Below, piece by piece: positions 4,994 through 9,454 of a DNA stretch of 64,000 bases; the stretch's first letter is position 1, and each line of letters opens with the position of its first letter. Location: sequence record PP925828.1. One strand, 5' to 3'. This DNA is from Escherichia phage SpoonbillGilly. The notes under the pieces were generated by a model, which did no database searches, was not told the origin of the DNA, and saw only the letters and a program-made list of their open reading frames with translations. Both the position numbers and the translations under genes were made by a program.

Positions 4994-5383
4994 GCGGTTT
5001 AAACTTCCCCGCCGTTGTAATCTGGCCTTTCGTTTCCGTCTTGCCGTCCTACGAGATAAATAATAGGTTATTCCCGAAAATGGCGCAAGCGTAATTTTGT
5101 AAAGAAGTGTAAAGACAAACACCACCGCACCACGTCCAGCGACTGCCTAAAATTTAATGAAACGGGCGCGCGAATAACACCAAAACAACCATTTTAGCAA
5201 GTAATTTTTTCATTTATATCTGCTCTAGGGTACTTGACAAAATCTAAAATCCTCGTGGTGAGGTTTTCTCGGTGTACCCCTTATGATTGCCTATCTTTTC
5301 CTTTGAGGCGCTTAGAATGCGTTACAGAGCGTTTTAGACCCTGTTAATAACTTATACAAAAAGCAAAAATGAAATTTAATGAG

Positions 5384-5392
5384 TTATCCACT
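5384..5392 (+). promoter_or_regulatory. DnaA-box-like 9-mer (TTATCCACT)
   Basis: 8/9 match to TTATCCACA. Confidence 0.4.
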
Positions 5393-5655
5393 TGATTTTT
5401 CAAAAAAGTATTTTCTGCTGTTATTTTTCATTGACAAATAAGGTTAGACGTGCATCAGAGCATTAGTAGACTAACAATCGCTAGGATAATAATCACGCTG
5501 GTGGATTGTAACAGCCGAAACAGTTAGCAGACTATTAATACTCTAAAAACCTATTAGCCAACTAACTATTTCATATTATATAATATACTTATAAATTAAA
5601 GAGAAATAATAACTATAAGAAACTATCGGCTAAGTGAGAACCACTATCATTTAGG

Positions 5656-5725
5656 TTATTCACAAAGTTATCCACAGCACAAAATAACTTGACGCAATAG
5701 GCGACGTTTTGGCGACTTATCCACA
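5656..5725 (+). promoter_or_regulatory. cluster of three DnaA boxes (TTATTCACA 5656-5664, TTATCCACA 5668-5676, TTATCCACA 5717-5725)
   Basis: two perfect and one consensus-compatible TTATNCACA 9-mers in the same orientation within 70 bp. Confidence 0.65.
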
Positions 5726-5744
5726 GACTTATGTACAGGTTATC

Positions 5745-5764
5745 CTACTGTATAAATATACAGG
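5745..5764. promoter_or_regulatory. LexA (SOS) box-like palindrome TACTGTATAAATATACAGGG
   Basis: CTGT-N8-ACAG with AT-rich centre; second copy at 9320-9339. Confidence 0.55.
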
Positions 5765-6012
5765 GTAGAATGGTAGCAGTAACAACCGCAATCAAATTTA
5801 AGCGGCCTAAAACGCGTTCTAAGCGGTTTTTCAGCATTACCCCTTATTATAATAAAGCCTTGTGTACGCTTACAGAGAGCTAGAAATAGAAAACGCGCGG
5901 TTATCATAAAAACAAGCGTTAGGCAAGGAATAAAAAACCTTTTCTTTTTTCTTGCCCCTAGCGAACAATTATCTATATCATTCACTCACCGATTAACGAG
6001 GGAAACAAAGAA

Positions 6013-7014
6013 ATGTCTACTGTAAGAATTGCAGTACCAGCAAACGCAACTATTGTTAAAGGTAGTTTGCGCAACCTGCTAGATGGTAGTAGTGCGGCAA
6101 GTATTCAGCACACCGCCGCAATGGTTGAAAAAATTCACGAGGATATTTTAGATAATAATGATACTCATTATTCAGTCGATGATTTCACACTATTACTAGA
6201 CCAGACAAGGGCGCTAGTAATTTTCAACCGTGATTATCACATTTTCCGTAATAGTCGTGGAACTGATATTGATTTTATCATTGTTGGCTATAGTGAGTCT
6301 CATAGTGGTTACATTGCGCGATTATATAACGTGCAAGAAAAGGAACAGGTAACAGCAACAAAAGTAAATAATATCAGACTGGATAGTGTCGGATCGTTAT
6401 TAAATAGTATCTGGCGTGAATTATCATCCAGTTATAAAGGTGCGGATAGTGACGCAATCGAAACAACTGGCGTATTGTGTTTTGAACGCGCTACGGGTAA
6501 CATGTTGATCCCTGATGATTATTTAGGGTATGGGAATGAATCAAACATTGCAAACGCTGGATTTACGTTAAAACCGGTTGACAATGTAGCAAAACAGGCT
6601 GTAAACTCTCAAACTTCAAGCGCAAATGCGCAAACTACTGAAAATAAAGGAAATATTATGTCTAAAGTATCTTCTATCGTTGCCGCTAATAAATCCGCCG
6701 TTGTAAACGCTGCTAAATTGGAAGCGGGTAAAATTGCACTGACTCAAATCACAAAAGTAGCGGCGAAAAAAGCGCCGTTTATGATTAAAGGTTATATCGA
6801 TACGCCGATCGGTCGCGTAGTGATCGCTAACCTGTTAAGCGTAGCGGTTGACCAGTACGCCCCGACTAATGCGAAAGCGAAAGCGGTAGCAGGCGCGGCA
6901 ATGGAAGCGGCAATGTTGGAAATGGTACAGAGTTTCAATATTGCTGAAATGATCGATGAAATGGTAAAAGGCATCGACATTTCTACCTTTACCCAAAACG
7001 CCGAAACAGAATAA
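6013..7014 (+). CDS. hypothetical protein (Ala/Lys-rich C-terminal half)
   Basis: 333-aa ORF; first gene of plus-strand block; followed by hairpin. Confidence 0.6.
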   Translation: MSTVRIAVPANATIVKGSLRNLLDGSSAASIQHTAAMVEKIHEDILDNNDTHYSVDDFTLLLDQTRALVIFNRDYHIFRNSRGTDIDFIIVGYSESHSGYIARLYNVQEKEQVTATKVNNIRLDSVGSLLNSIWRELSSSYKGADSDAIETTGVLCFERATGNMLIPDDYLGYGNESNIANAGFTLKPVDNVAKQAVNSQTSSANAQTTENKGNIMSKVSSIVAANKSAVVNAAKLEAGKIALTQITKVAAKKAPFMIKGYIDTPIGRVVIANLLSVAVDQYAPTNAKAKAVAGAAMEAAMLEMVQSFNIAEMIDEMVKGIDISTFTQNAETE

Positions 7015-7022
7015 TAATTACT

Positions 7023-7050
7023 AGCGGGGATTATTTCCCCGCTTTACTAT
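7023..7050 (+). terminator. putative intrinsic terminator
   Basis: hairpin gcggggattatttccccgc followed by T-rich tract. Confidence 0.5.
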
Positions 7051-7078
7051 TTCCCTGTCAATTGTTAGGAGACTAATT

Positions 7079-7573
7079 ATGTCAGAAGAAAAATATGGCT
7101 TTTCACTAGAAAGTGCGAATGAAGCTAAACACGATATGATAGTTTTAGTTGATTGTCATACTGGCTATTGCGGAGAAGGCTGGACGGAGGAACATTTTGT
7201 TCCCGCTGGCTGTGATCTGGACGCTTTCGCAAACGAACACGCATATGATAATGCTTCTCGTTTCGGTAGCGATGGGGAAGAAGATGAAGAAACAGGGGAA
7301 TGGATTGAAAATGATAATGTATATGCGAGTCTTTATCATTATCAATTGAGTAAGTCCGGTACTTATGTAAATGGCGGCGATCCTATTAATACCGTTATGA
7401 AACTAATTATTAAACACGGTGGCGCGGAAATAATTGGTAACAAGGCGTTATTATATGCAAATCGATTAAAACAGCTTGTTTATATTCCTGATAATTCCCG
7501 TTGGGATGAATACGCCGTTTTACAGAAAGAATTAAAACGCTGTTTCGGCGTGGAAGCATTAGAAATAGTCTAA
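7079..7573 (+). CDS. hypothetical acidic protein
   Basis: 164-aa ORF. Confidence 0.55.
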   Translation: MSEEKYGFSLESANEAKHDMIVLVDCHTGYCGEGWTEEHFVPAGCDLDAFANEHAYDNASRFGSDGEEDEETGEWIENDNVYASLYHYQLSKSGTYVNGGDPINTVMKLIIKHGGAEIIGNKALLYANRLKQLVYIPDNSRWDEYAVLQKELKRCFGVEALEIV

Positions 7574-7588
7574 TGTAAAGTTTTGTAA

Positions 7589-7618
7589 AGGTCGCCATAA
7601 TCGGCGGCCTTTTTTGTT
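7589..7618 (+). terminator. intrinsic terminator
   Basis: 8-bp stem aggtcgcc/ggcggcct, loop ataat, then ttttttgtt. Confidence 0.75.
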
Positions 7619-7682
7619 ATAATGCCTTTACACCGAAACGGTGGATTGAAAATTTTCCCAAAATTTTTTGGAGGCGTTAAAA

Positions 7683-8179: not shown

Positions 8180-8285
8180 TGGAAAGGGCAATTGTTAAAA
8201 TGTTAACTTTTGTTTGCGGCGTGTCTAGTGCTGCAATGTTGATCACGCTAGTAATTATGGTTATCCGTGACGCGAGGATCATTTA

Positions 8286-8630
8286 ATGGTTATTTACGAG
8301 GGTAATCGCTTTGTTACTAATTGCCGTCCGGCATTATTAGCAAACTATTTAAATCAGCTTTCACCAGTTTATAAAGGCGTCATTAATATTTATGAGGGTA
8401 AATCTCATTATAAAATTAATGCCGTTGTTGCGCGTGAACTGGCGTTTCAATTCCTGACTTTTGGCGCGTGTGATGTACAGGTTATGGGGGAGGCGTTAAT
8501 TGCAGAAAATGAAAATGAATTTATTGACATTTTCCGCAAAGTATGTACAGAGCGCCTAATTATGAAAGGCGCGTATATTCAATCAACCGCTGAAAGTATT
8601 GAAACAGCGTTTCGGGGAATTGCGCAATGA
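8286..8630 (+). CDS. hypothetical protein
   Basis: 114-aa ORF. Confidence 0.5.
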   Translation: MVIYEGNRFVTNCRPALLANYLNQLSPVYKGVINIYEGKSHYKINAVVARELAFQFLTFGACDVQVMGEALIAENENEFIDIFRKVCTERLIMKGAYIQSTAESIETAFRGIAQ

Positions 8631-8812
8631 CTAGAAATGAAGCTGTTAAAGCTATGTTAGAAGGTAAAAAAGTAACTCACCGTTACTTTTCCATGCATGA
8701 ATATTTATTCATGAAATATGAAGTGATCACCACGGAGGATGGCTATAAATTTAATCATGAATTTTATAGCCGTGAAATGTTTAATGATGGCTGGCGGCTT
8801 TATTATGAATAG
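8627..8812 (+). CDS. hypothetical protein
   Basis: 61-aa ORF; ATGA start/stop overlap with upstream gene. Confidence 0.45.
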   Translation: MTRNEAVKAMLEGKKVTHRYFSMHEYLFMKYEVITTEDGYKFNHEFYSREMFNDGWRLYYE

Positions 8813-8935
8813 CTGGTGGCGAAAAACACAAAGCCATAAATCTAATAATACCGCTGGGAAACATTCCCAGCGTTTACGATTTGGTAATGGCTTCACAATG
8901 ATATTGATAATCATTCTCATTCTAGGAGCAATGGC

Positions 8936-9175
8936 ATGGCTGTAAGAATTTTACGATATGTAGAACGTAAAGAAACCGATATTATGCAACATCATTTAAC
9001 TGATGGGCAATACGCGCAATTTTTAGAAATGCAGAAAAGCGGAGCTAGTACGGCGACGCTAGGAGCGTGGATCAATTCAGTTTCAACGTGTACGCATTTT
9101 GATTCATACGGATATACGCCAGCCGAAACCGTCCAGATCTTTGATGACTACGAGAAAGAATACATAACAGACTAA
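8936..9175 (+). CDS. hypothetical protein
   Basis: 79-aa ORF with AGGAG 7 nt upstream; followed by hairpin. Confidence 0.5.
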   Translation: MAVRILRYVERKETDIMQHHLTDGQYAQFLEMQKSGASTATLGAWINSVSTCTHFDSYGYTPAETVQIFDDYEKEYITD

Positions 9176-9182
9176 TAATAAC

Positions 9183-9215
9183 GGGGCGCAACTATCGGCC
9201 CCGCCTTTTCTGGCC
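9183..9215 (+). terminator. putative intrinsic terminator
   Basis: GC hairpin cggggcg...cggccccg followed by ccttttct. Confidence 0.5.
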
Positions 9216-9258
9216 TTCCTCAAATTTCCCCTTATAAAATACCTCCTCCAAAAATAAA

Positions 9259-9291
9259 CGCGTTAGAATGCGTTTGAGAGCGTTTTAGAGC
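9259..9291 (+). repeat. 33-bp direct repeat shared with 5308-5340 (gcg.ttagaatgcgtt..agagcgttttaga)
   Basis: about 28/33 identity, same orientation. Confidence 0.6.
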
Positions 9292-9319
9292 TATATTAGA
9301 GTTATTCACTATGCAGGAA

Positions 9320-9339
9320 TACTGTATAAATATACAGTA
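9320..9339. promoter_or_regulatory. LexA (SOS) box-like palindrome TACTGTATAAATATACAGTA
   Basis: differs from TACTGTATATATATACAGTA only in the central AT-rich core. Confidence 0.6.
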
Positions 9340-9347
9340 GAATAACC

Positions 9348-9429
9348 TGTTGATAAGTCTGTTGATAACGCCTCAAAATCGCTAGGATTTTGTCAAGTCA
9401 AATCGTGCTGTTAATAAACCTGTGGATAA
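9348..9429 (-). promoter_or_regulatory. DnaA boxes (TGTTGATAA x2 at 9348-9356 and 9360-9368; perfect TGTGGATAA at 9421-9429)
   Basis: reverse complements are TTATCAACA (x2, 8/9) and TTATCCACA (9/9). Confidence 0.6.
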
Positions 9430-9454
9430 CTTAAATAACAGTGTTTCTCACTTC

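Follow-up and report, generated by a model that had tools for sequence, protein, structure and literature searches.

Bacteriophage T5 halts after 8% of its genome has been injected and then resumes, and this behavior has been an open question since the 1960s. The left end of Escherichia phage SpoonbillGilly (PP925828.1) puts the question in a concrete form. In a window of 64,000 nucleotides, the whole stretch of DNA analysed here, two palindromes of the type CTGT-N8-ACAG, resembling the operator of the host SOS repressor LexA, stand beside clusters of DnaA-type 9-mers on both sides of a plus-strand gene block. Which protein reads these palindromes, and what would it do there? The sequence represents the left end of an Epseptimavirus-type, T5-like phage, and the 4.5 kb around the palindromes shares 91-96% identity with many Salmonella and E. 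coli T5-like phages of that type. On the minus strand the genes are, in order, dmp, A1 and A2; the plus-strand block follows, and after it an extended stretch of non-coding repeats. The layout is that of the T5 left terminal repeat, which is the first-step-transfer (FST) DNA, the part that enters the cell first; in one close relative the terminal repeat is annotated as 1-9914.

Exactly two matches to CTGT-N8-ACAG, both CTGTATAAATATACAG, were found in the window, at 5748-5763 and 9322-9337, one in each of the intergenic islands flanking the plus-strand genes, just as a sequence-only reading of this DNA had reported. The stretch identical in both is 18 nt long (TACTGTATAAATATACAG, 5746-5763 and 9320-9337), and the full sites are the following:

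5746-5765, no strand: left LexA-type box, TACTGTATAAATATACAGGG, heterology index 3.52, kept in relatives
9320-9339, no strand: right LexA-type box, TACTGTATAAATATACAGTA, heterology index 0.87, the same 20-mer as 'palindrome D' of T5

Both sites contain the 16-mer dyad CTGT-N8-ACAG (CTG-N10-CAG) with an AT-rich spacer, by which the gammaproteobacterial SOS-box consensus is defined (PMC2994835). Compared with the LexA consensus TACTGTATATATATACAGTA, the right 20-mer is one central base off (19/20), in line with the single core change noticed earlier, and the left 20-mer, ending in …ACAGGG, is three bases off. The heterology index (HI) was computed from an approximate matrix of 28 E. coli SOS boxes. 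On this scale the right box scored 0.87 and the left box 3.52, against 1.99-11.7 for the 28 training sites, so that both sites fall in the range of real operators as represented by these sequences. The next-best site in the window had an HI of 10.7, and none of 2000 Markov-1 random 64-kb sequences reached an HI of 3.6 or below, the lowest value being 4.67. Matrix scoring, the check proposed along with the first description of the palindromes, supports both as top-scoring predicted LexA-type boxes.

The two boxes are present at equivalent positions in all 41 close-relative loci (41/41) that reach far enough upstream of A1. Among these close relatives, the box proximal to the injection stop has an HI of 0.87-3.4 and the other copy is weaker, at 3.5-6.6; the variants seen in the stop-proximal copies (CTGG, CTGTAC, …ACACAG) also occur in natural LexA boxes. 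Further away, the box together with its DnaA array was found in Klebsiella phage Roth49, Pantoea phage AAS21, Pectobacterium-type phages and Proteus phage Stubb, as well as in the Vibrio phages VCPH, Cilsick and VspSw_1, while Vibrio phage 70E35.2 has the box and no DnaA boxes in the stretch examined. A1 identity in this distant set is 31-73%, falling to 31-42% for the Proteus and Vibrio phages. The comparison with related T5-like genomes that the sequence-only reading suggested shows the palindrome and DnaA features to be conserved, in close and distant relatives alike.

In 16 representatives with less than 80% mutual identity, the 16-nt core carries 1.66 bits per position; the DnaA trio reaches 0.77 and the flank on the opposite side 0.36, making the box the best-conserved part of its surroundings in Escherichia, Salmonella, Klebsiella, Pantoea, Pectobacterium, Proteus and Vibrio phages. 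The information profile across the same representatives peaks at CTGT and ACAG and has its minimum at the central two bases, the shape to be expected of a site read by a symmetric dimer. The centre itself (5755-5756 and 9329-9330) switches between AA and TT among close relatives without intermediates (loci L001-L042 of the relative set), and this switch equals reverse-complementing the box.

Two further observations accompany the conservation data. Extra CTGT-N8-ACAG palindromes with GC-containing centres occur in a Pectobacterium-type phage (L038 5820-5839, TACTGTATGCCTATACAGGT) and in a Vibrio phage (L057 4511-4526, CTGTATGGGTATACAG), in both cases adjoining further DnaA-like boxes. Fourteen contigs with distant A1 homologues (L043-L056, 36-48% identity) showed neither boxes nor DnaA pairs, and these contigs were dropped as evidence on the element, as A1 homologues are widespread in unrelated Rhizobium, Caulobacter and Flavobacterium phages.

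LexA would be the most economical reader of the box, since the site matches its consensus at 19 of 20 positions, has DnaA sites as neighbours and stays fixed while the phage proteins diverge. A different reader would be a conserved phage pre-early protein, namely A2, an A1-A2 complex or a nuclease such as the 'A1 restriction enzyme' of Davison, in which case the LexA match would be coincidence or mimicry. A2, a pre-early protein, is indeed conserved, carries a DNA-binding annotation in T5 and is needed for second-step transfer; palindromes including palD have been put forward by Davison as candidate cleavage sites; and the whole 16-mer is kept, beyond CTGT and ACAG, which is more than many LexA boxes need. 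However, A2 and A1 diverge to ~30-45% identity while the site is fixed, as it would be for an invariant host reader, and the central bases flip freely, as LexA tolerates. The sites of GcrA/Myb-type helix-turn-helix domains are usually asymmetric, and the match to this fold is a weak one. Together with the 19/20 match to a host consensus and the presence of host consensus sites (DnaA) next door, these points make a phage-encoded reader rather unlikely.

The neighbouring 9-mers are arranged as follows:

5656-5676, plus strand: DnaA box pair, TTATTCACA-aag-TTATCCACA, with a 3-bp gap
5717-5748, plus strand: DnaA box TTATCCACA (5717-5725), DnaA-like TTATGTACA (5729-5737) and weak TTATCCTAC (5740-5748)
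9348-9368, minus strand: DnaA-like pair, TTATCAACA twice, with a 3-bp gap
9409-9429, minus strand: DnaA-like TTATTAACA and perfect TTATCCACA, with a 3-bp gap

The perfect DnaA boxes listed by the sequence-only reading (TTATCCACA at 5668, 5717 and, on the minus strand, 9421) were all recovered. Of the 10 TTAT[CT][AC]ACA sites in the window, 7 fall within the two modules, while 4.2 would be expected in the entire 64 kb, and seven DnaA or DnaA-like 9-mers share the same two ~135-nt stretches with the LexA-type boxes. Clustering of the DnaA 9-mers far above chance expectation is thereby supported. The pairs start at 5656/5668, 5717/5729, 9348/9360 and 9409/9421, that is, two pairs per arm, 61 bp apart in both arms, with 3-bp gaps and a constant spacer as in the FST module of T5. 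The trio at 5717-5748 is phased 12 and 11 nt apart, with its weak unit TTATCCTAC overlapping the left LexA-like box by 3 nt; on the right, a third, weak unit (GAATAAC, 9340-9346) directly adjoins the box. The DnaA boxes keep a fixed register with the LexA-type box.

A phased DnaA-box cluster is one of the features of a DnaA-dependent origin, and the ordered pairs resemble oriC, so an auxiliary replication origin in the terminal repeat had been entertained. This is extremely improbable: in the literature, T5 origins are placed near the genome centre and the replication genes in second-step DNA, not in the first-step DNA; no obvious 13-mer-repeat unwinding element was seen beside the boxes, no formal search having been made; and an inverted duplication around a gene cassette is an un-origin-like layout. 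The companion idea of an injection-control site fared better, as it coincides with a published proposal for the same repeats based on their DnaA boxes.

The two islands had been described by their shared motifs. They are in fact an inverted repeat, with arms of 135 nt (5629-5763 and 9322-9456) that are 75% complementary, reaching ~195 nt when the flanking R element is counted. The window carries the T5-family FST repeat module twice, inverted and bracketing a variable pre-early cassette:

5629-5765, plus strand: left module, comprising the homologue of T5 IRC-spacer-IRD and the box (global and multiple alignment, T5 annotation)
6013-9175, plus strand: variable pre-early gene cassette between the inverted modules
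9322-9456, minus strand: right module, with IRD'-spacer-IRC' as its T5 homologue, adjoining the DRE and DRD repeats on their left side

In alignment with T5 and relatives, the arms correspond to the inverted pair of ~131-nt type in T5. The left module is placed where T5 has divergent pre-early promoters on both sides, and the right copy stands directly before the DRE/DRD arrays, as in T5, with repeat families D1-D3 at 9445-10261. Read outward from the cassette, each module consists of an R element (TTAGAATGCG…GAGCGTTTTAGA), ~33 nt, the 20-bp box, three GATAA units, a CTTGACA spacer and the second DnaA pair. The three GATAA units, a DnaA pair (3-bp gap) and a single weak unit, abut the box in an 11-12 nt phase. 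The remaining elements are the following:

5312-5338, plus strand: extra copy of the R element, TTAGAATGCGTTACAGAGCGTTTTAGA, at the position of T5 'inverted repeat B'
5800-5825, minus strand: R' element, inverted partner of the right R, at the position of T5 'inverted repeat B''
9263-9289, plus strand: right copy of the R element, TTAGAATGCGTTTGAGAGCGTTTTAGA
9386-9398, minus strand: conserved CTTGACA element, within the spacer between the two DnaA pairs

What had been taken for a shared 33-bp direct repeat is a 27-nt match between the first and third of these (5312-5338 and 9263-9289, 25/27 identical); its left copy lies outside the interval originally assigned to the feature, and the right copy finds its real inverted counterpart at 5800-5825. 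A DnaA-like TTATTAACA follows the extra R copy on the minus strand (5342-5350). The element cttgacaaaatc, also named at that stage, does occur twice, at 5232-5244 and inverted at 9386-9398, with the left copy again beyond that interval. The 13-mer at 5232-5244 is an exact inverted copy of the CTTGACA element, whose counterpart within the left module is at 5687-5699. No conserved -10 was found for the spacer CTTGACA by eye in a ten-module alignment. IHF core sites and the GATC content of the modules gave nothing informative. As a side observation, GATC is absent from the 887-bp left island (5126-6012), where 3-4 would be expected from the window mean of one per 244 bp, numbers too few for significance. 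Beyond the right module, TGTGCGAATCCGACA is repeated six times (9653-10261) and corresponds to T5 'direct repeat D'.

Much of this element has a history. In the T5 annotation AY587007, the right box is 'palindrome D' (9330-9349), with exactly the sequence TACTGTATAAATATACAGTA and no function assigned, the R elements match by position 'inverted repeat B/B'', and the left module lies between the predicted divergent pre-early promoters T5P3 and T5P4. Davison (2020, bioRxiv 10.1101/866236) compared 25 T5-like phages, described eight DnaA boxes in pairs 3 bp apart, credited the first of them to a 1987 paper (Heusterspreute 1987), and proposed a model in which membrane-bound DnaA grips these boxes to bring about the injection stop. 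In the same work, the T5 origins were placed mid-genome and the replication genes in second-step DNA, outside the first-step DNA; the function of the palindromes was called 'impossible to guess', with those including palD listed as possible A1 cleavage sites; a DNA 'knot' was proposed; and some T5-like phages were found to keep only the right module. Two FST fragments of ~9618 and ~5846 bp, reported there from Rhoades, have sizes near the positions of the two modules. A phage BF23 paper of 2023 described the functional role of the repeats and DnaA boxes as lacking experimental studies, and a 2026 PNAS paper described the mechanism of second-step transfer as still poorly understood.

The DnaA boxes, the inverted repeat and the DnaA injection-stop model are therefore already published (Heusterspreute 1987; Wang 2005; Davison 2015/2020). 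LexA, SOS and Fur are not mentioned in the text of Davison 2020 on T5 palindromes, and no link between LexA and the T5 repeats was found in that paper, the 2023 and 2026 papers, the T5 GenBank annotations or full-text searches, a scope to which Wang 2005, Heusterspreute 1987 and Davison 2015 do not belong. The predicted LexA-type identity of palindrome D appears to be new. The additions made here are this identity, its conservation as far as the phages of Proteus and Vibrio, and the inversion of the cassette described below.

Would LexA act on a promoter at these sites, as the sequence-only reading suggested in regarding the plus-strand block as wired to host LexA and DnaA? The first cassette gene encodes a DUF7566 protein, a homologue of T5 gene 011; for the functions of the cassette proteins Pfam gave solely domains of unknown function. 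The signals around the cassette are as follows:

5952-5981, plus strand: promoter-like TTGCCC-18-TATCAT ahead of the first cassette gene, at the position of the T5 gene-011 promoter and outside the module
9183-9209, plus strand: terminator-like hairpin at the cassette end, GGGGC…GCCCC with TTTT after it, read from the sequence

The hairpin was not flagged by the sequence scan and is probably the positional counterpart of T5 'palindrome C / putative terminator'. The left box is ~190 bp upstream of the promoter-like site, and the characterised gene-011 promoter of T5 is similarly distant; the right box comes after the terminator-like hairpin at the end of the cassette. A LexA operator should overlap a promoter or closely follow one, and neither box does.

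The boxes could nevertheless be classical operators that repress a promoter in or next to the module, making the cassette or a short transcript SOS-inducible. A candidate, TTATCA-16-TATATT (9356 to 9329), is formed by the proximal DnaA box and the box centre, and the same geometry is seen in relatives. In Vibrio phages, boxes lie 0-35 nt from sigma-54-type motifs facing pre-early genes, and the E. coli uvrB control region also joins LexA and DnaA sites (PMC6015884). Against such a role, the putative -10 alternates between TATATT and TATAAA with the centre flips, and the left copy mostly has the weaker form, TATAAA; flips of this kind are neutral for a symmetric dimer and not for a -10 hexamer, which fits badly with a -10 inside the box. 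The promoter candidate was rejected as the main reading on these grounds. Moreover, transcription from the right-hand copy would run antisense into a terminator, the promoters of the cassette and the A2-A1 operon (promoter-like or annotated) are ~100-200 bp from the left module, and the cassette is inverted in some lineages with the modules unaltered. A small RNA from the module was likewise considered and rejected, with no Rfam hit in 4900-10800 and folding z-scores of +0.12 to -1.4; in the ten-module alignment, the covariation term was 0.01 and no structure beyond the palindrome itself was seen, so that no stable or covarying RNA structure was found downstream of the putative promoter. Classical operators are accordingly an unlikely explanation. 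Of the first interpretation, the LexA-type boxes and the DnaA clustering are supported, and both features are conserved; the view of the plus-strand block as an operon regulated by LexA and DnaA is not supported, given the distance of the left box from the promoter-like site, the place of the right box past the hairpin, the flipping box centre, and a cassette whose content varies and which is inverted in relatives.

The sigma-54-type motifs of the Vibrio relatives deserve mention in their own right. Several exact copies of TGGCAC-N5-TTGC are present in the FST non-coding DNA of Vibrio T5-like phages (L057 3901-3915, 4208-4222, 4247-4261, 4406-4420 and 6800-6814; L060 62-76 and 395-409; L061 176-190; L062 6359-6373, 7632-7646 and 8682-8696), some of them at the 0-35 nt from a LexA-like box given above, and the window has none. 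Judging from these motifs, pre-early transcription of the Vibrio phages may depend on RpoN.

The cassette ranges from 1.6 to 4.6 kb in length among relatives, and its orientation varies too. In E. coli and Salmonella phages, as well as in Pantoea AAS21 and Proteus Stubb, the cassette runs divergently from A1; in Klebsiella Roth49 and Pectobacterium-type phages the gene-011 cassette is inverted, on the A1 strand (L063 4159-8123, L038 1109-5749, L039 1031-4982). Module position, module orientation and the inward-facing boxes are kept whatever the orientation of the cassette, indicating that the module functions independently of it, and this orientation independence fits a symmetric boundary role.

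Cassette inversion points to recombination between the inverted repeats, and the centre flips would result from template switching at the palindrome or from repeated inversions whose crossovers fall on different sides of the box. Might the modules then be mainly recombination or structural elements, serving cassette inversion and exchange or forming cruciforms or knots at ejection, with the likenesses to protein sites being secondary? The inverted cassettes of the Klebsiella and Pectobacterium-type lineages with boxes still facing inward, the varying cassette length, the centre flips expected from repeated inversions with differing crossovers, and the DNA 'knot' of Davison are all compatible with this. 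However, homology suffices for recombination, leaving unexplained why the most conserved 20 nt match the LexA consensus and why the DnaA 9-mer consensus and 3-bp spacing persist over deep divergence, and some T5-like phages keep the right module alone (Davison 2020). A purely recombinational or structural role is very doubtful.

What remains is a reading in which the modules are a landing pad for host LexA and DnaA, acting in cis as a pause or barrier element and not as a promoter operator; it is put forward tentatively, with belief and doubt close to balance. The palindrome would be a high-affinity operator for the host LexA dimer and the flanking 9-mers would bind host DnaA, as sequence and conservation suggest. 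As the sites are on the first-entering DNA, host proteins would load before phage protein synthesis: existing LexA and DnaA could occupy them within seconds of entry, ahead of any phage protein. The loaded module might then mark or hold the two positions of the reported DNA-transfer stalls, the least certain step of the scheme. It may also keep RNA polymerase from crossing the injection-stop region, whether outward from the cassette or inward from a strong promoter at the start of the unique DNA. The role of LexA would be chiefly that of an abundant and very specific architectural protein, for which coupling to the SOS state is possible and not obligatory.

A candidate promoter of this kind exists. 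A perfect sigma-70 promoter with an extended -10, TTGACA-18-TGtTATAAT (10718 to 10689, minus strand), is located just after the last early gene and faces leftward, in the direction of the right module, into ~1.4 kb of non-coding repeats. The right R element on the minus strand contains a terminator-like hairpin followed by a T-run (9275 to 9256), and the promoter and this hairpin together suggest a transcript for the module to stop. The same perfect promoter pattern lies beyond the right box in ten relative loci and points toward the box where this was checked (L002, L008, L063). Occurrences of the pattern were recorded in L002, L008, L015, L016, L018, L022, L023, L030, L032, L041 and L063.

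Several points weigh against the landing-pad account. LexA binding is predicted from the sequence, and the HI matrix is approximate. The box occurs in phages of Enterobacterales and Vibrio, and since a single LexA motif is common to all these hosts, conservation would look the same for LexA and for a conserved phage protein of equal specificity. In several lineages the left copy is down to one half-site, the other reading TTGT, and it is thus dispensable at least there. The boxes lie away from the characterised T5 promoters and from the promoter-like sites of the window, and the usual action of LexA is therefore not evident. Phage ESCO40, in which both boxes are present, has E. coli DH5a as its recorded host. 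This strain is recA1, and cleavage of LexA cannot therefore be required for infection. Finally, it is physically unclear how a cytoplasmic protein on DNA that has already entered would halt further entry.

A more elaborate version, in which an injection-stop complex is built from host LexA on palindrome D, DnaA on the phased boxes and perhaps a Fur-family protein, and in which LexA links the length of the pause or the transcription barrier to the SOS state arising from A1-dependent destruction of host DNA, is quite unlikely. The Fur component relates to a set of side observations. The DRE repeats (9445-9620), to the right of the modules, contain TGAGAAT-N-ATTCTCA units resembling a Fur box. 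At a threshold of at least 13/19, GATAATGATAATCATTATC gives 83 sites in the window against 30 ± 7 expected, about half of them in the first 9.7 kb; the best Fur-box-like match is 17/19 at 8900 (8900-8918), and others are at 105-129 and 6154-6172. The same 7-1-7 palindrome adjoins the module in Proteus Stubb (L059 3385-3399) and Vibrio VCPH (L057 6759-6777). A consistent G for T in each half makes Fur binding uncertain, and the literature searched contains no link between Fur and the T5 repeats.

If palindrome D is a near-consensus LexA operator kept from coliphages to Vibrio phages, LexA becomes the second named host factor to be tested for the injection stop, and an old open question gains a concrete and cheap test. 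If true, this would be unusual, a strictly virulent phage keeping a site for the host SOS repressor away from known promoters. If LexA does not bind, what remains is the T5 repeat module as previously described, an ordinary finding.

Among known systems, the closest are the T5 FST repeat regions 2 and 3 (IRC-spacer-IRD and IRD'-spacer-IRC'), which are the same element by homology, without structural difference: the inverted arms are ~131-135 nt long with two DnaA pairs each, and the right copy adjoins DRE and DRD. With the E. coli SOS boxes of recA, umuDC, dinD, sulA and other genes, the phage sites share the CTGT-N8-ACAG dyad and TA-rich arms, and their scores equal or better those of the strongest native operators. 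They differ from these in lying off known promoters, on the first-entering DNA of a strictly virulent phage, and in being fused to a DnaA array as an inverted pair, which gives four copies per genome when both terminal repeats are counted.

LexA-controlled switches are known from CTXphi PrstA, coliphage 186 tum and the colicin operons. In such temperate elements, the operators overlap promoters and induction is tied to DNA damage, in contrast to the T5-like phages, which are virulent, make no lysogeny decision and have their boxes off promoters. GIL01, at P1 with gp7, likewise represents a mobile element using host LexA as a DNA-binding regulator. The E. coli uvrB control region (PMC6015884) resembles the modules in having LexA and DnaA sites in one short stretch; both proteins act there on mapped promoters, whereas the phage modules have no promoter shown and carry phased DnaA pairs in a fixed 61-bp register. 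Arrays of the oriC type also hold consensus and near-consensus 9-mers in a fixed phase, as the modules do, although the origins of T5 are placed elsewhere.

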